From a virus: a DNA stretch of 64,000 nucleotides. The translations under genes and the position numbers were made by a program. Shown here piece after piece: positions 4,727 through 49,492 of the stretch (positions are counted from its first letter, which is position 1; every line of letters begins with the position of its first letter). The notes below the pieces were generated by a model, which searched no databases, was not told the DNA's origin, and saw only the letters and a list, made by a program, of their open reading frames with translations. The stretch lies in the IMG/VR virus record IMGVR_UViG_3300042991_000159, positions 35,796 through 99,795 of that record, one strand, 5' to 3'.

Positions 4727-5803
4727 TTATGAAACTTTATCATTTGTGTTTCTGAATGTTACTTTCTTTATTGGATCAGTTATTCCAAGAATCCTTCTTA
4801 ATAAAGTAGGATCGGATTGTAACAGACCATAGTTCGGATTTCGTGATAGTTCCATATTAACCATCTGATCATAATTACCTGCACTTGTCTTATCACGTAA
4901 ATATCCAGATAACGCATCAGTAATACCAGAAATCGAATTTGCTTTACGTTCATTATTAATAAATGCGTTTTCTCTTTTTAACTGAGTAGAAAGTAGTTGA
5001 TTCCTGTCATTAATCTGTCTTGCTTGTAATGCCTGTTGAGCATTCATTTGTGAAGTCTGATTCTTAATTTGGGCATTAACATTTCCTTCTTGTTGTAGAC
5101 TTTGTCCAAATTGTTCACCTGCAACTCTTTGTGTTCCTGTTCTACCTGCTATGATATTTTCCATAGCACCAGCCTGAGAACCTGCGGATGCTGCACCACG
5201 AGTTATCATCGCATTAGATAAATCTCTCTCACGCATAACCTGTTCACGCTCCCTGCTATAATCTACAAGGTTCGGAGCAATTTTTTCAGGTGTGTATGTA
5301 TCTGGTTCATAAGTTGGTAAATCTAATGGTCTATTTGCAAACAGATTTCCAATAGCTCCTGCTGCATATCCCATCCAAGGAACTCTTGATTGAAAAGGTT
5401 GTTCACCAGCACCGGCTGTCGGAGAAGTACCTCCCATACTTGTTGGGTTAAGAGTTGGATTCAAATATCCTTCTCCTGTATTAAAGTTTATTCCTGTACT
5501 GAAGTTTGTAGCCATAGCAGGAGTATTAAGTTTTGGTGCAATTCCTTCTTGATAACCCATACCGGGAAGAAATGTACCACCAGTATCATACATGGGAAGT
5601 GAACCACCCATAGCGAATTGTTGTCCACCTTGAGGTCCAATACTCATTCTAACTTCTTCTTGCTTTTGCTGTAAAGCAGTAAGTTCCGCTTCCATAGCCT
5701 TACGAGCTAACGGATCGTTTTTATCAAACTTATCTCCGAGTCTAAGTTTGTATCTGTTCATTATTTTCTTTGCTTCCTGAGCAAAAGTCTTTTCACGTTT
5801 CAT
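4727..5803 (-). CDS. Cargo protein 1-like, C-terminal half (358 aa)
   Basis: TFAQEAKKI...NDPLARKAMEAELTALQQKQE motif; FAMGG and YDTGG motifs; hydrophobic segment WMGYAAGAIGNLF; Q/N/A-rich helical C-terminus. Confidence 0.65.
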   Translation of the reverse strand: MKREKTFAQEAKKIMNRYKLRLGDKFDKNDPLARKAMEAELTALQQKQEEVRMSIGPQGGQQFAMGGSLPMYDTGGTFLPGMGYQEGIAPKLNTPAMATNFSTGINFNTGEGYLNPTLNPTSMGGTSPTAGAGEQPFQSRVPWMGYAAGAIGNLFANRPLDLPTYEPDTYTPEKIAPNLVDYSREREQVMRERDLSNAMITRGAASAGSQAGAMENIIAGRTGTQRVAGEQFGQSLQQEGNVNAQIKNQTSQMNAQQALQARQINDRNQLLSTQLKRENAFINNERKANSISGITDALSGYLRDKTSAGNYDQMVNMELSRNPNYGLLQSDPTLLRRILGITDPIKKVTFRNTNDKVS

Positions 5804-5804
5804 C

Positions 5805-7295
5805 TTAATCGAATTTAAGTCGGTTACTAAATACGTATCCGTTCCATGTAACTTCCCCTTTCTCAGTCATTCCTACTGCTGAAGTCCTTGACATTTTTGC
5901 AGGATTACCTTTTGCGTCAACAGGGATACCACCTACACCTTCTTGGTGAGTATTACCATTTGAATATTCTGTTATCTGAGGTTGCTGATTCATGAATCCC
6001 ATTCCTATTTGTCCACCATCTTCATGTTGTATTAAACCATTTTGAGAATAATACTTTGCTAATTCGAGATCAGTAGTTATTCCTGTTTTATTTTTAATAG
6101 CATATTCTCTAGCTTCATCATTATTCATATGTATTAAACTATCTCCTTGTTGTACAATTTCAGGAAAAATCATTGCTGTACTATCTGACAACGGATGATA
6201 ACTAAGACCGTGTGAACTTGTTTTTCCACTACCGGGATTGTAAGGGTCTGGAATATTTAACTTATTACCTTCAAGATATCTTTTAATCCAAGGGTTATTT
6301 TTGTTAGCAATAGTAAGACTATCAGCTCTACTTTTTAAATCTCCACCATTCTCAAACGTAGCACCGTAGTTAACTTGTTTAGTATCAAGTACATTACCAA
6401 GTCTTGTCTTTCTGTTTGCAAGTCTTTCTTGTTCTGCTTGTGATGCAGCTAATTCATCTGCTTGTTGTTGCATCATATCTTCTTGAGAGTTCTTCTGTTG
6501 AATCCCGGAAATTGCACTACCAGCAGTACTTAGAATTGGTCCAGCTATTTGTCCAATTGCCGGTATCATACTTACCAGAGAACCTGCTCCTTTAAGTAAT
6601 CCAGCACCGTTTTCTTTTAACCAACTACCAAACCCATACTGCATAAGACCCCCACCATATCCATGCTTTGCAAAACTTTTTTCCATTTCAATTAACCTGT
6701 TATAATAATCAGGACCCTGATTCTTGAAATGATCTGTTGCAATTTTTCTTGCTATCTTAGTTGATTCAGCTTTATTTTTAACATTTCCGGTATGTTCATG
6801 TTCTATTTTAATACCTTTTTTCATGAAGTCCTTAGAAGGAGAACCTTTATAAGTCTGACCTTTAGGTTTTTTCAGGTCTTCTCCTATCTTAGCAAGCTTC
6901 TTATAATATGTAGGACCAGCTTCTTCGAAATGATCCTTGGCAACTTGTTTTGCTATTTTAAGATTACCAGAATGTTCTTTTTCAACTCGTACACCTGCAC
7001 TCATAGCACCAGCAGGAATCTTTCCCCCATAAGCTCTAAGCTGTAATGCTGGTTTACCGTCAACAACAGGTCCAGCTACAAGTGTACCTCCATTAGCATA
7101 CAGCATTCCACCAAGCTCGTGATTCCACTTTCTAGCATTAATAGCAAACTGTTTTTTCTTACGTATAGCAGGAGAGTCTCCTGATTTGATACTCAGCTTA
7201 CTAGCTGGTATTTTTTGCCCTTCTGAAACTCCAAGATGTTTGCGAAGCGATCCTCGTTTTGAAGGCTTGATATAAATTTTTGGTTTAGTGGACAT
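5805..7295 (-). CDS. Cargo protein 1-like, N-terminal half; modular (basic N-domain, two DUF5661-like repeats, hydrophobic segment, GNTHQEGVGG...YVFSNRL domain)
   Basis: The ORF track starts at 7322 (GTG); ATG at 7295 (MSTKPK) is more likely. Directly downstream of the muzzle gene, as in crAss-like phages. Confidence 0.7.
   Translation of the reverse strand: MSTKPKIYIKPSKRGSLRKHLGVSEGQKIPASKLSIKSGDSPAIRKKKQFAINARKWNHELGGMLYANGGTLVAGPVVDGKPALQLRAYGGKIPAGAMSAGVRVEKEHSGNLKIAKQVAKDHFEEAGPTYYKKLAKIGEDLKKPKGQTYKGSPSKDFMKKGIKIEHEHTGNVKNKAESTKIARKIATDHFKNQGPDYYNRLIEMEKSFAKHGYGGGLMQYGFGSWLKENGAGLLKGAGSLVSMIPAIGQIAGPILSTAGSAISGIQQKNSQEDMMQQQADELAASQAEQERLANRKTRLGNVLDTKQVNYGATFENGGDLKSRADSLTIANKNNPWIKRYLEGNKLNIPDPYNPGSGKTSSHGLSYHPLSDSTAMIFPEIVQQGDSLIHMNNDEAREYAIKNKTGITTDLELAKYYSQNGLIQHEDGGQIGMGFMNQQPQITEYSNGNTHQEGVGGIPVDAKGNPAKMSRTSAVGMTEKGEVTWNGYVFSNRLKFD
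6690..6995 (-). repeat. Tandem duplicated DUF5661-like domain inside the cargo gene
   Basis: GVRVEKEHSGNLKIAKQVAKDHFEEAGPTYYKKL and GIKIEHEHTGNV...IARKIATDHFKNQGPDYYNRL share G-x-x-[VI]-E-x-E-H...A-x-D-H-F...G-P-x-Y-Y-x-x-L. Confidence 0.75.
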
Positions 7296-7377: not shown

Positions 7378-10300
7378 TTATTTATTAGATGGAGTATAAG
7401 AAGTTATTATATCATGAGCAACAAATCGTCTATCATTTACATCATTTGTATATGTAAGCTTTATAAATAAGTGAGTATCACGGAATCGTGAGTCTCTTCT
7501 TAATTTAGCTGTAGCTCCATCCGGTTCGTATCTTGCTCTTGGTATAGCATATCTCCATTTTCTCATTCTACGTTTTACATTTACATTTGGAGTTAATGCA
7601 ATACCTGCTGCAAGTGTACCTTGATATGTATTCCATGCTTTAAATCTTGTAAAGGTAGAATCAACTTCAGTTCCATTAGGAGCATAAAGTTCTGATAACC
7701 AAGCAAGATTGTTGAAGATAGCAACATCTGTCTGAGGATTGATAAGTAATGTTATACTTGAATCTACATAACTTCCATACAGATATCCTCTATTTGCATA
7801 AACATCATTATGTTTAAAGAAATTAATATGATCTCTTGATCCAAGAACTTTATCTCTGTAGTTAATAACATAGCTAGGATAATAATCAAAGAACCCTGTA
7901 AATGCATCTGTAAGTTCGTTATATACAAGTGACCAGTTGTTTACATTGTTATTTACCCATATCTCGTTAAACTCCGGATCGTTGAATAACTGAAGATGGG
8001 TTGGTGTAGTTATAGCTGATCTGAAATATGAATCCATTCCTTTCATTATAGACACTTCTTCCGGACCACCAGTATATTTATACAACGCTTTATTGATAGC
8101 ATCAATCCAATATAATCCGTTAGCTGTCAATAGGACATGACGTTTATCTGAAGCTCCAACATTAGTTTTGGCGTAATCAAATCTATCAAGAACTCCTGAA
8201 GTACCAAGAGACAGTTGAGAAATCTGAGTTGTCTGTAACAAAGCACGTTCATTAACTGAGAGAATACCGAAAGCTCTCGGTTGGAAGAAAAGTAACTTCT
8301 CGTTGACAGTAATCAATTTGGTAATCTCTCCCCACTGAGGATCAACGTCTTTATAAGAATTTACTCTGAAATTTAACCAACTATCAGATAACTCATTAGT
8401 AGTCTTTATATCAGAAGCATATGTTCTAACAGGATATTCAAGTTGAGAAACAAAATCAAACGGAGCTTGAATGAATATCTTAGTATCATTTTCTTTGCTA
8501 TAAACCGTATTATATCTGTAAAGATCATTTGGTTGAACAAGATCGTCTGCTATACCATTACTCCAAATTCCTGCTGATTCATGAATAAGATCAGATGTTG
8601 TGAATATACGATGATAACAATTATCTAATCTCAAAGGGAGGTTAATACTTGTCTCTACAGGAAAATATATAACTTCCGGTTGAGTTGAAGTAGCTGAATC
8701 CTGTTCCCAAGAACTGTAGAGATAATCAAACATTCCAATATACGTATCTCCACCGAATACAAGAATACTTGTATTCGCAATATCTTGTATATCAGATGCA
8801 ACCATATAGGTGTTCTGTTTTCTATTATTGAAAGTAAGACCTCCATATATAGTTGAGAAAGAGTTCCTTCTATAGTTAATCAATTTTCTCGCACTATCAT
8901 ATGCTGTATTCTTACTTCTCCAAGATGTATTATCTGCTCCAAAAACAAAAGATATACCTTTATCCGTATGATCTGTAGGATTATTTACATAAAATATGTT
9001 TGTTCCAATAATAGCTTCTACCTGCTCCTGAGTAACAATTTTTCCATCATAAATAGTTGTTTTGGATGTAATATCGTTCTCGTCACCCGCAGCCGATCCA
9101 GCACCACCGGGAGTCTCCGGTAACTGAGGATTATTCATTGCATTTACAGCATAATATCTATATAATATCAAGTCTGTAAGATAAGTATCTACTGCTACGT
9201 TTGTACTAAACTCTCCCACCTCTTGTAAACGATCACTTGATCTTTGAGTAAGATTTTTATTAAAAGCTACTTCAGGAGAAGCAAAGGTATGAATGTCAAG
9301 TGTTGATGAACCAATAGTCCAATTTACTGAACGTGGATATCCAGAAACTGTTTGTGTAGGACCAACTATTCCCTGTGCCATTACTGTTCTATCAGCAGAC
9401 TCTCTTTTAACTCTAACAATTTGATAACTCTCTGCCTCAGAAGGAAGATTGCTAAGTTCAAATTGAAGATGAAGAATATTACCTTTTGTAACATTACTAT
9501 CATACCATGCTATAGTATGATCAGCAGATGCTGCTGTTCCCGGTGTATAAGCGAATGTTTCAGTATAATTTATATATGTTCCACCATAATCATTTACGTA
9601 ATAACTGCCGGGATTCTTATCCCATTTGATTGTCCACAATCCTCCCACGTTTGCACTTTGAGTAACATCGTTTCCAACAATAGGATGACCTGCTATCATA
9701 TTACGTATAATGTTTCCGACCATCGTTCTGTCAAAGTCGGTAATACTATTGTCATAACTAAAAGTATATATATTACCATCACTTCCTCTAATCTGTATCC
9801 TATAATCATTATAGGGACCTTCATAGTTAATATATATTGTACCTTCTTGATTTACACCACCTGAACCACCGGTAAGATTGTACATATCTACATCTGAAAT
9901 TGTACTAATAGAAGGCATACGAATATCTGCAATCCATTTAACGAAAGAGGCTCTTCCTTTTTCATCAAAGAAAACGACACCAAATCTATAAATTTCATCT
10001 CTATGGTATCCAAGATAATTAACTACGTTATAAGGACTTGCGTATCCTTCATAAGAAGGATTATCAACAGTTCCTTCAGGAACAGTATAAAGTTCTTGTG
10101 GTATTCCAGTAAACTCATCTATTGTTGTTTCTTTTATCTTAAATTTGTAAGATACATTTGGTCCTTCTCCACCGGGAACTATACCATCTGCTTGATACAT
10201 ATATCTATATTCGTGATTCCCATCATTATCAAGATCGTTGAATTTGTTGATAGCATCAGCGTCTTCAGGAATGCTCCACGCTGTTCCATATCCACTTTGA

Positions 10301-11604
10301 TCATAATCAGGATGTGTAGATTGATAAACATCAGCAGCATCATAGTATTCCCAATCTCCTTTAGCAGCAGTACCACCTGCTCCTAATCTTGTGATTGCGG
10401 CTCCATATATCAAAAAATAAGAATCATCTTCCTGATATACACGTGAGATGTTTCTACGGGTTGATAGTTCATTATAGTTAGGCTCAGTGCTTGTAGCATT
10501 TGCTCCACCAAAACGGTAAGCTCTTGCATCAAAATCTACGTTGAAATATTCTTCAACTATGTTTGATGGGAAAAGTATATTATCTTTTGTTTCAAGGAGT
10601 CCTGCTGAAAACAAAATAGTTCCTACCGTTCTAATATCTTCCAGAATTAAACTACCAAGACTTAATCCTGTATCTATAAAGATAATAGTTTCTATATTAC
10701 CACTGATTTCACGTTCATCGAAAATCCTTATCTCTGGATCATTATTGCTTGTTGTATAATGAATTGCAACAATACGTAGTCGAGTATATCCTGTAGAGTT
10801 AATATCAATAGTTCCCTTTACTGCTTTTCCGGTATCTTCGTCAAGTTCTGAACCACGATAGTTCTCCGAGGTAGTATCAACTTCAGAATAATTTACAAGA
10901 TTTATTAATCCGCTTGTAGGAGAGAATACAGTTTCTGCTCCATGCAACGAATAGAGTTGATAAACGTATTGAATTTTTCCAGCTTTAAGATTACCATTAA
11001 CAAGTTCTGTTATAACAGGTGCGGTCATTTCGATATTACCAACTACTTCAAGTTTGTCAACAGACATACTGGTAAGATCATTAGTATCAGCATTATATAC
11101 TGTATTGAGATGTCTAAGTCTATTATACCCGTCAACCCAATACACCTTTTGAACAATAGAACTTTCGTATCTAGCAATACTACTAATAAGATTTCCGGTA
11201 CATAACTCAAGATTACCTTCGTATAACAGATTTCCTCCAAGATGATAATAAGTTTCAGTAAGATTGAGAATACTCGCTAAAGTAAGGGATTCAATATCAT
11301 CAATATCAACTTTCCAAATACGATCTACAGAAGTTAGATTTGGTATAGCAGTATTGTTATCAGTAGTCCAAAGCACTAAATGATCATTCATCACTACATG
11401 ACCACAAATGTAATTGTTAGTTGATCCACTATCAGTATCTAAACGTTGTTGTGTTCCTCTTAAATTCTCTTGAGCACCACCACTTAAACCTTCCTGAGTC
11501 ACAATTCTCATATTACGTGCATCAAAATAATGTACGTTATCGTATTTTTTGATAGAAGAATCTCTATCCATTCCTTGTGAAAAGGTATTCGTTATTGTAG
11601 CCAT
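7378..11604 (-). CDS. Tail muzzle / tail stabilisation protein (1408 aa)
   Basis: N-terminal NTFSQGMDRD...YFDARNMRI, GYHRDEIYRFGVVFFDEKG and VFGGDTYIGMFDY motifs typical of crAss-like muzzle proteins; size and position fit. Confidence 0.85.
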   Translation of the reverse strand: MATITNTFSQGMDRDSSIKKYDNVHYFDARNMRIVTQEGLSGGAQENLRGTQQRLDTDSGSTNNYICGHVVMNDHLVLWTTDNNTAIPNLTSVDRIWKVDIDDIESLTLASILNLTETYYHLGGNLLYEGNLELCTGNLISSIARYESSIVQKVYWVDGYNRLRHLNTVYNADTNDLTSMSVDKLEVVGNIEMTAPVITELVNGNLKAGKIQYVYQLYSLHGAETVFSPTSGLINLVNYSEVDTTSENYRGSELDEDTGKAVKGTIDINSTGYTRLRIVAIHYTTSNNDPEIRIFDEREISGNIETIIFIDTGLSLGSLILEDIRTVGTILFSAGLLETKDNILFPSNIVEEYFNVDFDARAYRFGGANATSTEPNYNELSTRRNISRVYQEDDSYFLIYGAAITRLGAGGTAAKGDWEYYDAADVYQSTHPDYDQSGYGTAWSIPEDADAINKFNDLDNDGNHEYRYMYQADGIVPGGEGPNVSYKFKIKETTIDEFTGIPQELYTVPEGTVDNPSYEGYASPYNVVNYLGYHRDEIYRFGVVFFDEKGRASFVKWIADIRMPSISTISDVDMYNLTGGSGGVNQEGTIYINYEGPYNDYRIQIRGSDGNIYTFSYDNSITDFDRTMVGNIIRNMIAGHPIVGNDVTQSANVGGLWTIKWDKNPGSYYVNDYGGTYINYTETFAYTPGTAASADHTIAWYDSNVTKGNILHLQFELSNLPSEAESYQIVRVKRESADRTVMAQGIVGPTQTVSGYPRSVNWTIGSSTLDIHTFASPEVAFNKNLTQRSSDRLQEVGEFSTNVAVDTYLTDLILYRYYAVNAMNNPQLPETPGGAGSAAGDENDITSKTTIYDGKIVTQEQVEAIIGTNIFYVNNPTDHTDKGISFVFGADNTSWRSKNTAYDSARKLINYRRNSFSTIYGGLTFNNRKQNTYMVASDIQDIANTSILVFGGDTYIGMFDYLYSSWEQDSATSTQPEVIYFPVETSINLPLRLDNCYHRIFTTSDLIHESAGIWSNGIADDLVQPNDLYRYNTVYSKENDTKIFIQAPFDFVSQLEYPVRTYASDIKTTNELSDSWLNFRVNSYKDVDPQWGEITKLITVNEKLLFFQPRAFGILSVNERALLQTTQISQLSLGTSGVLDRFDYAKTNVGASDKRHVLLTANGLYWIDAINKALYKYTGGPEEVSIMKGMDSYFRSAITTPTHLQLFNDPEFNEIWVNNNVNNWSLVYNELTDAFTGFFDYYPSYVINYRDKVLGSRDHINFFKHNDVYANRGYLYGSYVDSSITLLINPQTDVAIFNNLAWLSELYAPNGTEVDSTFTRFKAWNTYQGTLAAGIALTPNVNVKRRMRKWRYAIPRARYEPDGATAKLRRDSRFRDTHLFIKLTYTNDVNDRRFVAHDIITSYTPSNK

Positions 11605-14823: not shown

Positions 14824-17800
14824 TTTGTTAAATTTTTAATTATGCTTTTAAGTTCTCTTATTTCTTTTTTCAATTTATTGATCTCAAAATTATGATCTTT
14901 TACTCCTTCTACAAGTAAAGCGCAAACAGCACGATCGTCAATGTTATAATAACCTGTATCTGCTATTTCCATAACTGCTTCAGGAAGAACTTCCATTAAA
15001 TCTTGTGCTATAACAGATGCTCTCCTTCCGATCATTGATTGACCTGTAATACGACTTCCAAGTTCATTATATTGATATGTAATACCCTTTAATCCGAGTA
15101 ATCTACCCATTGGATTAAGAATGGGTTGAATATCATTTTTAAACCTGATATCAGATGATTCTGCTACTACTCCTATTTCTTCCCATGAATTATTATTAGT
15201 AACCAATCTATACGATTTTGAATTCGGAGATTTTGCCGCCATAGCTAATACAGAAGCATAAAGACCTGAATAATAATAAGAACTTGATCCAAGCGATAAT
15301 CCGCTTGCTGTATTTGGTCTTAGATATGTTCCATCAAGATATAATTCAGCTGTCCCTGCAACATAAAATATATGTCTTGTACTTGCAAGACTCCATCCAG
15401 ACCTGTATGTTGCAGTAGAATCATATATTCCAAATAACATTTCCCCGGCATTGTTGCTACCAAATCTATTAATGTTTATTTGGGCAATACGTTTATCGGT
15501 ATAAGAAGAAGCTTCGTTATGAAACGAAAATCCAGTAACCCATGTATCTGTTGTCTGATTCCCTCCCATCTCTATAGAGGTATTGGTAGCTGTTCCTGTT
15601 TTTGCAAGTGTTATAGTTCCTTCAAATGATGAAATATATTGAGTTGTTTTGTCTCCTATTATTAAATAGCTTCCAGTAACTAATACATTTTGTGCAGCTG
15701 TTACCTGTATAGCTTCAGTAAGTGTACCTGAAGTATTAGCTGTATAAAATCTAAGTTTACCAGCATCATTATCTCCATCTCTTTCTGCTCTTATTAGTGC
15801 TATTCTTTCATTAGTTACAGCTGATGCTGTATTACAAAAACTTACATCAGCAACAGCAAGTGCATCACTTGTGTTATTCCCGACTATTATAATTCCTGCC
15901 GATTCAGAAGTTCCCGTAGCTGCTACCTGTATATAATTAGTAACTGTATTGGCTATTAAACTCCCCGTATCACCTACTCGCAGATTATCGGAAACATACA
16001 TTACAGTCCCATCAAAAGAACAATTTGCTTCTGCATTAAGAGCGTCTGTTGTTGCTGTTGCTGTAACAATCCTGTTGTTTGCTTGGTTCGCTACAGAAAC
16101 ACCACCTCCTCCGCTTGCTTCGATAACATTCCCAGAAGCATCAACCGCCAGATAATATGCTACTGTTCCTGTATATGTACCAACTCCATATTGAACTAAA
16201 TCCAGATCACCATATAATGCGTTCCCTGTTGCAGTAGTGGCAAGCATTCCTGTATTATTATAATACAATGTTGTAGCCCCATTTGCAACTGCTGAAATAA
16301 AAGCATCTGACACATTTACATACATTGTAAATGTACCAGTTGTGTATGCTTGTAACGATGAACTACCAAGATATACAGCTGTTCCTCCTGTGTTTATTCC
16401 TAAATCTGTTCCGTTATAAGTGAGTCCATTATTTCCTTCAATGGTAGAACCGTCTGTCCATACGGCAACATAATTATTAGCAGGAGTACCTGATATCTGA
16501 ACACCACCAGATGTACCATATGTAAGTAATCCAGTAGTAGTATTGTAATAAACTACGTTAGTTTCTGATCCTTTAGCTAATAATGCTCCGGCTCCTCCTG
16601 TACCAAAATAAAGTTGACCAACAGTAGAACCAACAGATGTTCCACCATAAAAATAAATATTACCTCCTCTTCCACCACCTACTCCTACTGATGCTCCTGA
16701 ACCAAATGTTAAATCTCCTCCTGTATGCGCTGGATTTGTACTTGATGTAGCTCCACTTGTAAATGTAACGTGTAATCCAGATGCTGATGTAACAGAATTT
16801 ACATTAGTATAAAAATAACTACCATCATTAACGAATGAAAATCCAGCAGTAAAACCAGTAGCATATATACCCAATGAAGATATAAAGTTAGTTGAAGTGT
16901 TATTAAACCTTAATCTTTCAACTGAATTTTGATAATATGAAAGATAATCACCTGCATTATATGCAAAATAATTTGTAGCATCTGAAAATTGTAATTGTTC
17001 ACCTACTGCAAGTCTTACATCATCTCCAGAAACTGATGGGGAAATAACATTAGAAGTTACTGTCCAAGGAGATGCTCCTGAAGTACTGGTACTTAAAGAA
17101 GTCCAACCACCATTTATATAAGCTCTAAACTGATGATCAGTAGAATCATAAGCAATGGTTCCATTTACTACAGTAGTAAGATTTGTATCCGGATCAGTAT
17201 CACTCATTATTCTTACTCCCATAAGAAGTCCTGCATGAAGTACCGTAGTACCTCCAAACATTACCTTAAATGAGTTAGCGTTTGCATTTGTGGGAGTGCT
17301 TCCATACCCCATTATAATTGAACCTCCACCAGTAGCTACACAATCATATCCATAAGCTGCTGCTCCTGCTGCTGAAGATAGAGCTTGTGCTCCTATTGCT
17401 ACTGTATTGGCTGCTGTTGGTCTTGCCCAATATCCCACACCAGTAGAATAATCTCCAGTAGCTGTTGTGCTTGTACCTATTCCTACGCTACTATTCCCGG
17501 CAGCAGTACCACTTCTTCCTATACTCATAGCGTGATGTCCCATACTTGCTGTTGAAAAGTTTCCTTGCATTTTAATTATAGGAGCCAATACACCGGCAGA
17601 AACAGATTGTATTTGAAATAAAGAATCTTCACTTCCCGGTGCAGAAACATCTACTAATACGTGCTCTATTCTTACTACTTCATAAGAACCTGAATCATCC
17701 TCCACAGAAAGAGTTATGTATCCTCCTATTCCATCACCAGCTGTACCTGAAGTGGTTCTTCTAAATTCTGCTATCTCAATCGAGGTATTAGTTGAGGCAT

Positions 17801-35616: not shown

Positions 35617-38031
35617 TTACTTACTTTTTGAGACTGTTTTTGGTTGCATAGCTTTCTTCTTATCAATCACTTCAGTTGCCTTATTATGACGAATAGTTTC
35701 AAGTATGTCCTTATTCTTCAGTTCATAATCCTTTCGAATTTTTTCACGATCTAATTTAAGTTTCTCAATAGCAAGAATTCTTTCTTCTATACCATTACCT
35801 TCTTGCCCATCGTCTTTACCCGCAATAGCAAGTTTAGTCTGGGCTTCAAGCATTTTTTCTTCCCATCTTTGTTGACGTTCGGCTTCCTTATCAGCCATTT
35901 GAGCTTGAATCTGTTGTTGTTGAGCTTCAAGATTTGCTTGTTGTTGTTCAGCTATAAGTTTTTCAGCATTTTCTTCATACTTCTCAATCTTTCTTCTCAT
36001 AGAACTCATAGAATCAGATAAGTATATATCCATTAGAGCAGAGAAATTAAGCTTGTCATTTTGCAGACCAGCTTGAGCAAGACTCTTCATAGCCGCCATC
36101 AGTTCAGCATCTTGAGTAGAGTTACTAATCATAATACCGTAATCAGCATCGTTGAATAGTTGTCCATCAATCTCTGTAATAACCGAACTCATTTCATCGG
36201 AAATGTATTGCAGTTTCTCATGATTCTTATTTCTCCAAGCATACTTTGCAGTCTCAAGAAGAGTTTCAAGAACTCTCTTCTTAGTATTATCGTGCATCAT
36301 AAACCATTTCTCTGTAATATGAGAAGACTGAGTTACAGCACGTTCAACACCACCAACAGTCTCACGATTTTCTATCTGACCCTGACGTTGCTGATTTACA
36401 CCGGCAATTTCACCAAGTTCACGCTTAATAAATTCAAGCATCATAACGTGTTGCTGGATATAACTACCCATCTCAAGATCAAGTACTTTAGTATTCTGGT
36501 TCATTTGACCAGCAAGTTTTCCTTGTGCTACCCCTTTATTACCTTCTTTAAACGGGTCTTCAATCGCCCATCCAAGAATCTCAGCATAGTACATCCACTT
36601 GTCCATATCCCAACCTTCCGGAATACGAGATGTATCCATTACAGAAATCTTACCTTTACTCTTTGCAAAGGCAAGTTCTGTTCTATACATAAATACATTA
36701 TATAGGTATTGATAAGGCTTCATCCTATCCATTAAAGAACGAGCCTGAGACGTATTAGTATTATAAATGGTTCCTACATAACCTGATCCACCAATAGATT
36801 TATTACCCATACTACGGAATTGGATTGGTCTTGGACCCCACTTAACATAAATATCTTCTGCGATACGAGTACCTTCCCACCACTCATTAATCCAGAACCA
36901 TTCAATTTTTTCTCCAAGAGCTTCATTAACAGGATAGTTCTCGTCAACAAGTTCCTTTTGAATTTCTCCGTCTTCATCATACCAACTCTTTTCTCCCACC
37001 TTTCTCATACTTACCCACACAACTTTTAGAACACGAACTTCTCCGTTATCACTATATGCTGCAACGTTTCTTGTATTATAGTTGTTGAGATCAATAAGAC
37101 TATACTCCCATTCACCGTTTTCATTCTGAGAAGCATTGGTTGCAGAAATAGGATTTTGAACTGGTCTTCTGGGATAATACTTAACAATATCCTTACTACT
37201 ACCTCCACTGGAAATATATCCTCTTTCGATTTTATCAATTTCAGCAGGAGTAAGATGATCATAATAATTATCAATAACCCATCTAATAGGTTGATAAGTA
37301 TCTTCAATTATAACATCTGCATCTTCAACTAAGTAACTCGGTCCAGTACGAAGAACTGTGAGAGTCATGGGATCAACTTTTCGTACAACCGGTTCACCAC
37401 CAACAATATCTACATTATATACTTCCATTCCACCAACAAGAGCATCTTCAAATCCTCTGTTGAACTTAATTTTTAAGTCTTGTTCTTTCCATAAATAAGT
37501 AAGATATTGCGTAGCTCTTCTCTCTCTAAGGTCTTGAGCTTCATACTTGCTCCACTTTTCGAGTTTCTGAATTTCTTCAGCAAGTTTTTCCTCACTATAG
37601 TTTTCATCTTCAACTGCTTTCATTAGCAGTTGTTTCATCAAATTCTTTTGCTTCTCTTCTTTCTGAGAAACTGCATCCGGATTTACTACCATTACTCTCC
37701 AATCAAAACGTCTTTTTGATTCCTCACCAATAAGAAGGTCAATTTTAGGATTAGCAATAGGATAGTTCTGCATCTTAGCAGGGAAGGACGCATTTTTTAT
37801 TCCCCAAGGATTAACTGCTTGTTCAATATCTCTCTCGTCAAGAATATCATTACGCAAATTGTAATTGACCATCATGTCTTTTTTAGTCCTCATAAGAAGA
37901 CTATCTCTGTTGTATGATACATCAATAGCTGACTCCATACAATCAATTACAAACTGCTTATTCTTTTTAGCAGTTGATTTCTTTTGGTACGGGAAATGTG
38001 CTGTCGTTTTAATTATTTGTCCTGTAGCCAT
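35617..38031 (-). CDS. Portal protein
   Basis: 804 aa; NYPIANPKIDLLIGEE, WINEWWEGTRI, SLMDRMKPYQYLYN and AGVNQQRQGQI motifs; follows TerL. Confidence 0.92.
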   Translation of the reverse strand: MATGQIIKTTAHFPYQKKSTAKKNKQFVIDCMESAIDVSYNRDSLLMRTKKDMMVNYNLRNDILDERDIEQAVNPWGIKNASFPAKMQNYPIANPKIDLLIGEESKRRFDWRVMVVNPDAVSQKEEKQKNLMKQLLMKAVEDENYSEEKLAEEIQKLEKWSKYEAQDLRERRATQYLTYLWKEQDLKIKFNRGFEDALVGGMEVYNVDIVGGEPVVRKVDPMTLTVLRTGPSYLVEDADVIIEDTYQPIRWVIDNYYDHLTPAEIDKIERGYISSGGSSKDIVKYYPRRPVQNPISATNASQNENGEWEYSLIDLNNYNTRNVAAYSDNGEVRVLKVVWVSMRKVGEKSWYDEDGEIQKELVDENYPVNEALGEKIEWFWINEWWEGTRIAEDIYVKWGPRPIQFRSMGNKSIGGSGYVGTIYNTNTSQARSLMDRMKPYQYLYNVFMYRTELAFAKSKGKISVMDTSRIPEGWDMDKWMYYAEILGWAIEDPFKEGNKGVAQGKLAGQMNQNTKVLDLEMGSYIQQHVMMLEFIKRELGEIAGVNQQRQGQIENRETVGGVERAVTQSSHITEKWFMMHDNTKKRVLETLLETAKYAWRNKNHEKLQYISDEMSSVITEIDGQLFNDADYGIMISNSTQDAELMAAMKSLAQAGLQNDKLNFSALMDIYLSDSMSSMRRKIEKYEENAEKLIAEQQQANLEAQQQQIQAQMADKEAERQQRWEEKMLEAQTKLAIAGKDDGQEGNGIEERILAIEKLKLDREKIRKDYELKNKDILETIRHNKATEVIDKKKAMQPKTVSKSK

Positions 38032-47044: not shown

Positions 47045-49492
47045 CTAGTTATTTTCAAGTTTTTCTAATCTCCCTATTACTTCTTTAAGAGCTTCAATAA
47101 TTAAAGGAATACTTTTATCAAGTTTAACAGTCAAATAATCTTCTCCTGAAATAGAATTTCCATGATAATCCCTATCGAATGGAGCAAAACTAACAGCGTC
47201 TTTAATTACAGAACCGAGATTTTGAGCTATCATTCCTGTTTCTACTTCATGTGCAGGAACAAATCCTACTCTGTTACAAACATCTTGTCTCCATTCATAA
47301 GTAACACCATACAGTCGTTTAACTTTACCAACAGGATTAGTGATTCTTTTTATATTGGTCTTCAATCTTTCATCAGATGAATAAGCAGTAATTTCACCAG
47401 TTGCAGTGATAGCACCAGTTACAGCAAGTGTAGAACCAGAGAAAGTTAGATTTGCTTCGGCAGTCATCGCACTTGTTCCATTTCCTGTAAGAATATAATT
47501 TACTCCGATTGTAGATAATCCTGTACCACCATGAGATACAGGCAACACTCCTGTAGCAGAACTCACGCTTATATTTCCACCTAAAGTCAAACTACCAGAA
47601 GAAGTAACTGTACCTGAAAGTGTTATCCCATCCACTGTTCCTGTACCAGAAACCGAAGTTACTGTACCAACAGTAGTACTATATCCCAATCCTATTACAA
47701 AATCGTAAATTTGATCTCCTGTAGCCAAAGCTGTTCCACCATTAGTAACCGCTCCTGTAACAACGGTTAATGCAGGAGTTGTGGTTCCATTTGCAACAGT
47801 CAGTTGATTAGTTGTACTAGATGTAACCTCAGTTACAGTACCACCTCCACTAATAGAAGTCTCAATAATATTACCTGTTGCATCTACTGCAAGATTATAA
47901 GTTGGAGTTCCTGTAATTGTACCACTACCATATCCCCCAAGTCTGAGACCTGTTGAACTAAGTCTCATTCTTAATGCACTTGCTGAAGCTCCAATCTTTA
48001 AGAACCACTCCATTTCAGTATTGAAGTTGTCCGTTGCTACAGCCCCGTCAACATTAACATAGAAACTACCAGCAGTTCTTGTATTAGTTCCATCCCACAC
48101 CTGATAGGTTGTGCGAACTATTGTTGCGTCTGTGGGAGCTGCGGTTGGAGCAGAATAAGTTCCTCCTGTTTTAGTAAACTTTATAAGATTGGATATACCT
48201 GCAACATCCCCCCAGTTCTGAGAATCATAAGTCGAATAACCGAAGGAATCTCCTTTAATAACATATATTGTACTTGAAGTTAATGAAGCATTGTTATCTG
48301 ACGGACCTACTCTTAGCAAGCCAGCTGCATATACAAAATCAGCATTATAATCAAAATCATTCGTAGTTGTATTGGTATAAGGTATCTGATACTGAGCAGT
48401 ACCAAACGATACAGGAGTTCCACCACCAACACTATCAGCATAAGCTTTGACAGCTCTGTAAGAAGGAATCCAATTATCATCAAGAACTCCATTAGTATCA
48501 TAATCAGCAGCGTAAACAAGTCCTTTCAACTCTTTTGCATCCGTAACAGTCATTGTAGTATTGGTAATCTCAATCATCTTGTAATTTATTGATGTTGTAT
48601 GATAACCAAAAGTTGCAGTTGAAGCTTTTAGATACAATAAGGAACTTCCTAAATTTAAGTTTAAACTAGCACCGTTAACTGAATTAACTTTAAATTCACC
48701 TGCCTCGCTTGAGACTAATGATGAATAACCTACTTCCAACTCATATATCCTGAATGGATTACCGGGATTAGTAGTTATAGATGCTCCTTGTGTTAATGTT
48801 CCTCCAAGAGTCACGGTTCCTCCTGATTCAGTAAGACCTGAACTAAAAGTATATGATCCACCACCAACTGAGTCTGCGTAAGCTTTCACTGCTCCATAAT
48901 CCGGTATCCAGCGATCATCAAGAACACCTGCTGCTGAGTAATCACTTTCATAAATCAGACCTTTCGTATTAATATTATCTTGAACTAACATCGAAGTAGT
49001 GGTTAAATAAAAACGACTATATAACCACGATCCTGTATTTCTCATTAAACCTACATCTGTAGCAGATGTACCCGCTGATATTCTATGATAAATTGTACTT
49101 GTATCATCTTTGGGTTCGTCTCCACATTGTATACTCCATAAACTATATTCTTGTGTAACTCTTGTATGAGACCCACCACTACCAGTAGCACTGCTAACAG
49201 TAAATATATATTGATATGGTGCCGGCATATTAAGATAACACCAATCATCAAAGTGTATTGTTGAAGCTCCTGATAATGGACTACCAATCCTTACAACACC
49301 ATCTGTTTCTGTTAGTCCATTTTCAAAAGTATAGGATTGAGGATTTTCTACAAGATTGTTTACATTGTCAATTACCATACTAAGTTGGTCATTCAACATA
49401 TTGAGATGCAAACCTCTACCTACGAAAGTATCGTGCTGATCCTTATAGTCCCAGTTTATATTCCTAAATTCAGGAAGTTTTTCTATTGCCAT
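47045..49492 (-). CDS. Fibre protein with internal duplication and C-terminal peptidase S74 chaperone
   Basis: 815 aa; GAITATGEITAYSSDERLKTNI autocleavage motif; GVLPVSHGGTG repeat. Confidence 0.85.
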   Translation of the reverse strand: MAIEKLPEFRNINWDYKDQHDTFVGRGLHLNMLNDQLSMVIDNVNNLVENPQSYTFENGLTETDGVVRIGSPLSGASTIHFDDWCYLNMPAPYQYIFTVSSATGSGGSHTRVTQEYSLWSIQCGDEPKDDTSTIYHRISAGTSATDVGLMRNTGSWLYSRFYLTTTSMLVQDNINTKGLIYESDYSAAGVLDDRWIPDYGAVKAYADSVGGGSYTFSSGLTESGGTVTLGGTLTQGASITTNPGNPFRIYELEVGYSSLVSSEAGEFKVNSVNGASLNLNLGSSLLYLKASTATFGYHTTSINYKMIEITNTTMTVTDAKELKGLVYAADYDTNGVLDDNWIPSYRAVKAYADSVGGGTPVSFGTAQYQIPYTNTTTNDFDYNADFVYAAGLLRVGPSDNNASLTSSTIYVIKGDSFGYSTYDSQNWGDVAGISNLIKFTKTGGTYSAPTAAPTDATIVRTTYQVWDGTNTRTAGSFYVNVDGAVATDNFNTEMEWFLKIGASASALRMRLSSTGLRLGGYGSGTITGTPTYNLAVDATGNIIETSISGGGTVTEVTSSTTNQLTVANGTTTPALTVVTGAVTNGGTALATGDQIYDFVIGLGYSTTVGTVTSVSGTGTVDGITLSGTVTSSGSLTLGGNISVSSATGVLPVSHGGTGLSTIGVNYILTGNGTSAMTAEANLTFSGSTLAVTGAITATGEITAYSSDERLKTNIKRITNPVGKVKRLYGVTYEWRQDVCNRVGFVPAHEVETGMIAQNLGSVIKDAVSFAPFDRDYHGNSISGEDYLTVKLDKSIPLIIEALKEVIGRLEKLENN
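48419..49336 (-). repeat. Tandem ~150-aa duplication within the fibre
   Basis: SYTFENGLTETDG...KGLIYESDYSAAGVLDDRWIPDYGAVKAYADSVGGG and SYTFSSGLTESGG...KGLVYAADYDTNGVLDDNWIPSYRAVKAYADSVGGG. Confidence 0.85.

Follow-up and report, generated by a model that had tools for sequence, protein, structure and literature searches.

Conserved Gly-Gly seams between exchangeable modules of a putative injected cargo protein of a crAss-like phage

Positions 35,796 to 99,795 of IMG/VR record IMGVR_UViG_3300042991_000159, a stretch of 64,000 nucleotides (nt) that we call the window and whose numbering is used below unless stated otherwise, are part of the 99,795-bp, 100%-complete genome of a crAss-like phage. 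Two adjacent minus-strand open reading frames (ORFs) of the window, 5805-7295 and 4727-5803, together make up, judging by sequence, the crassvirus cargo (ejection) protein C1, of the type of gp45 of phage PhiCrAss001, a protein that is most likely carried in the particle and injected. Along this chain, motifs of the form [F/Y/H]-x-x-G-G recur at the borders of distinct modules, raising the question of what they are for. A preliminary description of the locus took the protein for a plug-in ‘polyprotein’, its passengers inserted between Gly-Gly linkers and possibly cut apart, or alternatively for a carrier of a repeated peptide that docks to the capsid interior.

The seam motif and the exchange of modules

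Checking of translations and coordinates confirmed every motif listed in the preliminary description: seven copies fit [F/Y/H]-x-x-G-G, and RAYGG, with its aromatic residue at -1, and YGFGS, with Gly-Ser in place of Gly-Gly, are variants. With the pattern extended to seven residues, [FYH]-x-x-G-G-x-[LIMF], the strict copies in C1 are HELGG-ML, YANGG-TL, HGYGG-GL, FENGG-DL, HEDGG-QI, FAMGG-SL and YDTGG-TF. Only 0.82 copies are expected in a chain of 854 aa (20,000 shuffles; P about 5e-5), and enrichment by chance is excluded. The density of the pattern is 8.2 per 1000 aa in C1 compared with 0.10 per 1000 aa (3 in 28,859 aa) in the remaining phage proteome, a difference of about 80-fold, and the C2-like protein (621 aa) and the RNA-polymerase subunits (4052 and 1338 aa) have zero copies. 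An aromatic residue or His is found at -3 in 7/12 Gly-Gly sites of C1, as against 17/130 in the other ORFs of the window (Fisher P = 8e-4).

The same preferences extend to the family. Among 506 Gly-Gly sites from 42 C1-family proteins, F/Y/H occupies -3 in 32% (3.5- to 7.6-fold enriched), Ala occupies -2 in 27%, and L/I/V stands two places past the Gly-Gly in 51%; the motif is present even in the very distant gp45, at about 30% identity. The seam codons vary (GGT GGA, GGA GGT, GGG GGA and others), therefore selection acts on the peptide and there is no shared DNA word, which rules out a recombination signal at the DNA level. It might still be argued that the motif is a by-product of Gly-rich low complexity or of such a signal and has no role as a peptide, given that the protein is Gly-rich in places and that some of its Gly-Gly sites lack the motif; however, the shuffle statistic, the conservation at -3, -2 and +2 over the 506 sites, the differing codons and the persistence of the motif in gp45 make this explanation extremely improbable and bring it close to refutation.

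Exchange of modules was traced through a HMMER search of 1.84 billion representatives, which returned 564 relatives at E <= 1e-3; the 150 best of these, re-aligned together with earlier matches, gave 276 similarity stretches in 174 proteins. The stretches begin or end almost solely at residues 1-10, 51-80, 201-220, 311-330 and 421-450 and at the C-terminus, and the four internal breakpoint zones among these (51-80, 201-220, 311-330 and 421-450) coincide with the four clusters of motifs. Strict motifs mark 34-57% of non-terminal module borders in the relatives versus 13% of random positions, and modules at the ends of proteins usually lack one. The plug-in organization proposed in the preliminary description, with variable domains swapped exactly at xxGG, thus passes the check that it had set for itself, the more so as one passenger occupies three slots.

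This passenger, of ~105 aa, lies here between FENGG and HEDGG, i.e. between the helix module and the N-lobe of the portal-binding (crAss_CARG1) domain. P0047 (71% identical) has it after the basic module (..HQDGG|DLRSR...), with the helix module coming next; in P0012 it is found between YENGG and HQNGG; and in P0013 and P0017 it is N-terminal and ends in ..H-A-K-GG or ..A-Q-GG. Passenger-free relatives run from ...FENGG or ...FMEMGG straight into QIGxG..PQITEY, the sequence that follows HEDGG here. In each slot the passenger starts immediately past a Gly-Gly and closes with H-x-x-GG. The cassette therefore looks like ‘module plus one seam’ inserted directly after an existing Gly-Gly, as far as the alignments tell. 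The basic module is similarly mobile, being N-terminal here, internal or tandem in DAC17 and gp45, and C-terminal in P0032 and P0033; internal copies nearly always have Y/F-x-x-GG in front of them. On this comparison of sequences, we consider the motifs to be seams (joints) between swappable modules of an injected protein.

All of the modules named in the preliminary description proved to be real, and they alternate with the seams along the minus strand as follows. The N-terminal basic module (IYIKPSKRG...ARKWN; 7122-7286) is a three-helix unit that matches phrog_25798, and 110 of the 276 stretches begin in it. Its conservation is very high (12 invariant residues in 23 sequences), and other phage contigs encode it alone, as a complete protein of 66-69 aa (L011:5965-6165; P0145, P0169). 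Seam 1 (7080-7121) is a double motif, HELGG-ML and YANGG-TL (HELGG 7107-7121, YANGG 7086-7100), with 98 stretches ending at residues 51-80. It is followed by the variant RAYGG-KI (7023-7037), which resembles SAYGG-PL of gp45 and stands ahead of a tandem pair of DUF5661 units (6678-7019; PF18905, 71.5 bits, E 7.6e-20, in two stretches). Each unit carries E-x-E-H ... D-H ... Y-Y, an arrangement that could be a metal site; no paper on DUF5661 came up in a literature search.

Seam 2 (6624-6665) comprises HGYGG-GL (HGYGG 6651-6665) and YGFGS (6624-6638), the latter being part of LPEYGFGSW, the conserved start of the next module; 58 stretches begin here, at residues 201-220. That next module, evident from the translation, is a Gly-rich hydrophobic segment of membrane type with a long helix (6357-6623) and is the commonest module among the relatives. 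Seam 3, FENGG(-DL) (6342-6356), where stretch ends and starts cluster at residues 311-330, and seam 4, HEDGG(-QI) (6012-6026), with 56 stretches beginning at residues 421-440, bracket the alpha/beta passenger (6027-6341), which in addition to its slots in P0047, P0012, P0013 and P0017 occurs at the N-terminus of very large proteins, e.g. P0183 (3099 aa) and P0120 (1814 aa). No family match was obtained for the passenger in Pfam, PHROGs or the ESM Atlas, the last of which gave only unnamed viral clusters. The GNTHQEGVGG...YVFSNRL domain of the preliminary description is the beta-rich N-lobe of the portal-binding domain (5808-6011; crAss_CARG1 profile positions 3-66), and the C-lobe helix (5642-5797; positions 77-122) lies in the second ORF. 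Seam 5 (5576-5617) is the tandem FAMGG-SL-P-M-YDTGG-TF (FAMGG 5603-5617, YDTGG 5576-5590); gp45 has FAYGG at the corresponding place after its portal-bound domain. Alignment defines a final, conserved C-terminal region (SRVPW...NLVDYSRERE...; 4730-5401), which is shared with the fused C1 proteins P0034-P0044.

AlphaFold2 modelling of the first ORF product with a 56-sequence alignment gave a predicted local distance difference test (pLDDT) of 95-98 for the basic module (residues 10-60), 63-89 for the helical DUF5661 pair (93-205), 64-86 for the long helix (264-302), 50-76 for the passenger (331-426) and 76-88 for the N-lobe (440-496). Four segments fall below 50, namely residues 67-92 (which begin in seam 1 and include RAYGG), 207-224 (seam 2), 305-330 (seam 3) and 427-437 (seam 4). 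Every motif copy lies in or next to one of these segments, so the prediction for the free chain is that the motif forms a flexible linker. A single-sequence model was useless (pLDDT 38), and the YANGG hairpin that it showed at very low confidence was not reproduced with the alignment. Foldseek comparison of the model with the PDB returned nothing significant; a weak hit joined gp45 chain 7qog_M to the N-lobe (57 columns, 30% identity, E 1.4, probability 0.54).

Identity of the locus and the split of C1

The muzzle protein gene (7378-11604, minus strand; PF25731 crAss_MUZ, E 6.7e-196) lies directly upstream of the first ORF and fixes the identity of the locus. On the minus strand it is followed by the 496-aa and 358-aa ORFs discussed here, a 621-aa ORF (C2-like) and giant ORFs of RNA-polymerase type, and this order of muzzle, C1, C2-like and RNA-polymerase genes matches that of PhiCrAss001 and of the relative L015. 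The 496-aa ORF, C1-N, runs from an ATG at 7295 to a stop at 5805-5807 (its longest form begins at GTG 7322), matches DUF5661 and the N-terminal part of crAss_CARG1 in Pfam, and encodes a protein of which an identical copy is already on record (P0006). Residues 3-54 of the 358-aa product of C1-C (4727-5803) match crAss_CARG1 profile positions 77-122. Taken singly, the two ORFs score 22.8 and 19.4 bits with crAss_CARG1 (PF25725), under the curated cut-off of 27 bits; reading through the TAA-G junction (P0005) yields one collinear match of 46.4 bits, at residues 426-551 and profile positions 3-122 of 133, which places the joined chain in the family. The locus can be called C1 because of the muzzle gene upstream and because this match, at 426-551, corresponds to the portal-bound domain of gp45 at 425-552. 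DNA similarity to known phages was not found, tblastn with C1-C gave no match, and neither did phmmer of the C1 read-through against PDB sequences.

PhiCrAss001 gp45 is a single polypeptide; here there are two genes, making this a split variant of the C1 family. The junction, TAA-G-ATG (5801-5807), falls within the portal-binding domain. L015, whose muzzle protein is 60% identical, has a stop, 2 nt and an ATG at the same protein position, and L008, a more distant relative, has a stop, 1 nt and an ATG at the corresponding position. The split form is in the majority, with 53/68 representatives (50% identity) that bear the N-lobe terminating at this point. Database homologues of C1 accordingly end at ...NGYVFSDKLK or start at MAKK..TFA...IMNRYKLRLG, and the C1-C homologues P0007, P0008, P0010, P0011 and P0015 share its start point; fused forms are also present (P0009, P0023, P0024 and gp45). 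A programmed frameshift or an assembly error was considered and rejected, given that relatives break the protein at one and the same point with spacings of 1 nt or 2 nt, which place the second gene in different frames. Judged from these homologues, the split is a natural fission, in which case two chains must come together to form the portal-binding domain.

Hinge, processing site or docking handle

Our favoured interpretation, to which we give a probability of roughly 0.55, is that the conserved seam is a Gly-Gly hinge joining independently folding modules of the injected protein. Each hinge would be flexible, flanked by one aromatic and one aliphatic anchor, and disordered in the free chain, so that the string of modules could be packed into the tail barrel and portal channel and, at infection, go through the tail one module at a time. 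By insulating neighbouring folds, the seams would also become the points at which passenger cassettes are gained, lost and permuted in evolution. Both this hinge and threading function and an uncut chain are what we infer from the position of the motifs at module borders and from their predicted disorder.

The structure of PhiCrAss001 bears on this interpretation. The portal-bound domain of gp45 was resolved as a continuous fragment, residues 425-552, and cryo-electron microscopy shows about twelve copies of this domain per virion, gp45 being bound to the portal wing and the tail barrel (PMC10172136). The fragment begins with NAFGG-WL, NTQGG-DF and INEGG-SH, all ordered and in one continuous chain (structure of PMC10172136); seams can therefore become ordered, and these three are uncut. 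A helix of gp45 bound to the tail barrel (214-245) begins four residues after SAYGG-PL, while the copies FAEGG, KAFGG and FAYGG fall in unresolved stretches. A transmembrane helix is also predicted for gp45 (PMC10172136).

Published gel data for PhiCrAss001 were re-analysed with intact gp45 (90.7 kDa) in mind. Matrix-assisted laser desorption/ionization (MALDI) peak lists of bands from sodium dodecyl sulphate (SDS)-polyacrylamide gels (PMC6235969, supplementary file 14) were recalibrated for bands 1-9, 70 to >300 kDa, and their peaks were matched to the tryptic masses of 41 phage proteins and of shuffled decoys. Nine proteins (the portal, gp22, gp23, gp25, gp26, gp44, gp47, gp49 and gp50) were recovered at their expected sizes: gp50 and gp47 at 270 kDa (z about 6), gp49 and gp44 at 150 kDa (z 8-10), the portal at 100 kDa (z 3.6), gp26, gp22 and gp25 at 85, 80 and 77 kDa (z 7-15) and gp23 at 70 kDa (z 11). 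The two bands above 300 kDa hold the muzzle protein gp44 with gp34, gp35 and gp40 (z 2.0-5.4), a tail complex that withstands SDS (loci L022, L023), which agrees with the tail disulfide bonds that were reported in 2023 (PMC10172136). Intact gp45 remained at decoy level in every one of bands 1-9 (z <= 0.6, with few suitable peptides, 23 versus 35 for the portal), and it is not among the proteins named from the gel in the text of the 2018 paper (PMC6235969).

Three observations weigh against a simple hinge. The failure of gp45 to rise above decoy level in these bands is one; the absence of a stable hairpin at the seams in the AlphaFold2 model made with the alignment is another; and it is not obvious why a simple hinge should require the conserved aromatic residue at -3 and the Ala at -2.

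The main competing explanation is that the seams are processing sites, at which a phage or host enzyme would cleave a C1 precursor behind the Gly-Gly, either in assembly or once it has been injected. Viral precedents exist: the adenovirus protease adenain, at (M/I/L)-x-G-G|x, and the African swine fever virus (ASFV) protease pS273R, acting on pp220/pp62, cut virion precursors at Gly-Gly. Processing would suit the placement of the seams exactly between autonomous modules, one of which, the basic module, also exists as a protein of its own, and intact gp45 went undetected at 70-300 kDa despite about 12 portal-bound copies per virion. The gel negative is weakly compatible with processing, since gp45 offers few suitable tryptic peptides and the portal band, too, is faint and rich in keratin. 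The complete genome was screened with a Pfam scan (87 ORFs, each 70 aa or longer) and with six-frame profile searches, and no protease of the C48/Ulp1, C39, adenain or prohead (S78, S77, ClpP) families was found: the scan listed no clan-CE family (C5, C48/Ulp1, C63), PF00770 and PF02902 matched nothing at E <= 1 in the six-frame searches, and the C39 peptidase PF03412 was not found. The Ulp1- or C39-like cysteine protease whose presence the preliminary description suggested checking is thus not encoded. Nor do the motifs resemble double-glycine leaders, being internal and repeated in a family whose N-terminal modules mostly start without Gly-Gly, and they depart from the adenain site in having F/Y/H at -3, Ala at -2 and L/I/V two places after Gly-Gly. 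This conservation on both sides of the Gly-Gly, together with the three copies that are continuous in solved gp45, argues against cutting. We regard processing as unlikely, and the label ‘polyprotein’ has not been earned: no such protease is encoded, the motif straddles the Gly-Gly, and the solved domain contains intact copies.

A more specific form of the idea involves a JAB/MPN+ ORF (390 aa, genome 5868-7040, H-I-H-S-H-H...S-G-T-D; PF14464, 21 bits). JAB enzymes of bacterial ubiquitin-like systems cut after a C-terminal Gly-Gly, and the ORF is, on sequence grounds, the sole encoded candidate with a known preference of this kind. It overlaps the start of a ThiF/E1-like ORF, a pair (genome 5868-7735, outside the window; loci L018, L024) that corresponds to gp77-gp76 of PhiCrAss001 and that could serve in ubiquitin-like processing or conjugation, or else in counter-defence. 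C1 would then be a virion polyprotein cut after Gly-Gly, perhaps by JAB in this branch, with the E1-like enzyme possibly activating the new end; the basic module, the DUF5661 units and the passenger would each become an injected protein in its own right. If true, this would be a phage counterpart of the core maturation of adenovirus and ASFV and would explain the missing intact gp45 in gels. However, the JAB match (H-x-H...S-x-x-D) is below the Pfam cut-off of 25 bits, its homologues occur in only 74 phage records, from one crassvirus branch and Flavobacterium phages, and G001, an 86%-complete relative with five seams in its C1, has no detectable JAB or ThiF; the narrow distribution and the absence from G001 weaken JAB as a universal seam enzyme. 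A substrate of a JAB/E1 ubiquitin-like system would be a beta-grasp protein ending in Gly-Gly; the modules that precede seams are helical or alpha/beta in the model. A literature search on crAss-like phages with ThiF and JAB found nothing. We consider this version doubtful, and more so than processing as such.

Two other kinds of peptidase are encoded. A stand-alone caspase-like protease (Peptidase_C14, 96 bits; genome 19952-20755), with its His (SGHG) and Cys (DCC) motifs intact, lies in the early/tRNA region, outside the window (L019:2952-3752). Clan-CD enzymes select Arg/Lys, Asp or Asn at P1, not Gly, and from this preference we consider it an unlikely seam enzyme. Two large fibre-type proteins (1258 aa and 815 aa) end in a Peptidase_S74 chaperone domain (14973-15155 and 47192-47377, minus strand), of the kind that serves as a self-cutting intramolecular chaperone of tail spikes.

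The remaining explanation is a docking or packaging handle, each copy binding a repeated site (the portal wing, the ring-protein lumen, the muzzle or the capsid interior) and so loading and positioning the cargo. A tight turn flanked by one aromatic and one aliphatic anchor would suit a small binding peptide; in gp45, NAFGG-WL and NTQGG-DF, which follow the basic module, are ordered in the fragment that interdigitates with the portal wing, and the barrel-bound helix starts just past SAYGG-PL. On the other hand, SAYGG, FAEGG, KAFGG and FAYGG, which flank resolved segments of gp45, are unseen in the symmetric maps, and the usual lack of a motif in end modules fits a joint better than a handle. 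Since the C2-like protein and the giant RNA-polymerase subunits lack the seven-residue motif, it is not a general loading signal in this phage; a general packaging tag is rejected for this genome, and the capsid-interior docking peptide common to cargo proteins, the alternative offered by the preliminary description, is a misfit here. Docking is less likely again than processing at large, though a handle of this kind is partly compatible with the hinge interpretation.

Relation to known systems and significance

The closest counterpart is gp45 itself (PF25725; PDB 7QOG, 7QOI, 7QOJ, 7QOL, 8CKB; Bayfield et al. 2023, PMC10172136), with which C1 shares its position after the muzzle gene, the location of the portal-binding domain (426-551 versus 425-552), a Gly-rich membrane-type helix, a basic module, a conserved C-terminal region and the seams, those of gp45 being FDTGG, SAYGG, FAEGG, KAFGG, NAFGG, NTQGG and FAYGG. 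It differs in being split in two within the portal-binding domain, in having its basic module at the N-terminus rather than just before crAss_CARG1, and in its passengers, the DUF5661 pair and the ~105-aa module. The seam motif is not described in the PhiCrAss001 papers (PMC6235969, PMC10172136), the second of which mentions neither the motif nor linkers nor processing, and in which ‘cleav’, ‘proteoly’ and ‘protease’ do not occur.

C1 also resembles the polyvalent proteins of phages and conjugative elements (Iyer, Burroughs, Anand, de Souza, Aravind 2017, PMC5512222), which unite many variable modules in one chain and are thought to enter the host with the DNA. Those proteins carry two to fifteen conflict-related effector domains, often with an MPTase autoprocessing peptidase, whereas the modules of C1 are DUF5661, phrog_25798 and a passenger without a family, and Pfam and PHROGs scans detected no known effector family and no MPTase in it. 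The polyvalent-protein paper does not describe the seam motif either, and mentions no Gly-Gly joint, linker or crAss phage (PMC5512222).

With the ejection proteins of podoviruses (gp14, gp15 and gp16 of T7; gp7, gp16 and gp20 of P22), C1 shares storage in the particle, exit before the DNA, passage through the tail in a partly unfolded state and an expected role in bridging the envelope (PMC10172136). It has no sequence relation to them, and part of it, in PhiCrAss001, is stored in the tail barrel. To our knowledge, no repeated seam motif occurs in the ejection proteins of T7 or P22. The precursors of adenovirus and ASFV are comparable as internal virion proteins in which x-x-G-G is repeated between functional pieces; unlike them, C1 is not accompanied by a clan-CE protease, and its motif has a hydrophobic residue at -3 (P5), Ala at -2 (P4) and a conserved aliphatic residue at P2'.

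No phages of the human gut are more abundant than the crassviruses, and their way of loading and injecting protein cargo is an open question. The seam peptide supplies a simple rule for reading their most variable cargo protein, marking the sites at which passengers, possibly host-takeover or anti-defence factors, are plugged in, and the seams give experiments a precise handle. If they are cut, the model in which one gp45 chain threads from the tail through the portal into the capsid needs revision; if they are hinges, they would represent a design principle for proteins that are stowed in, and extruded through, a narrow channel.

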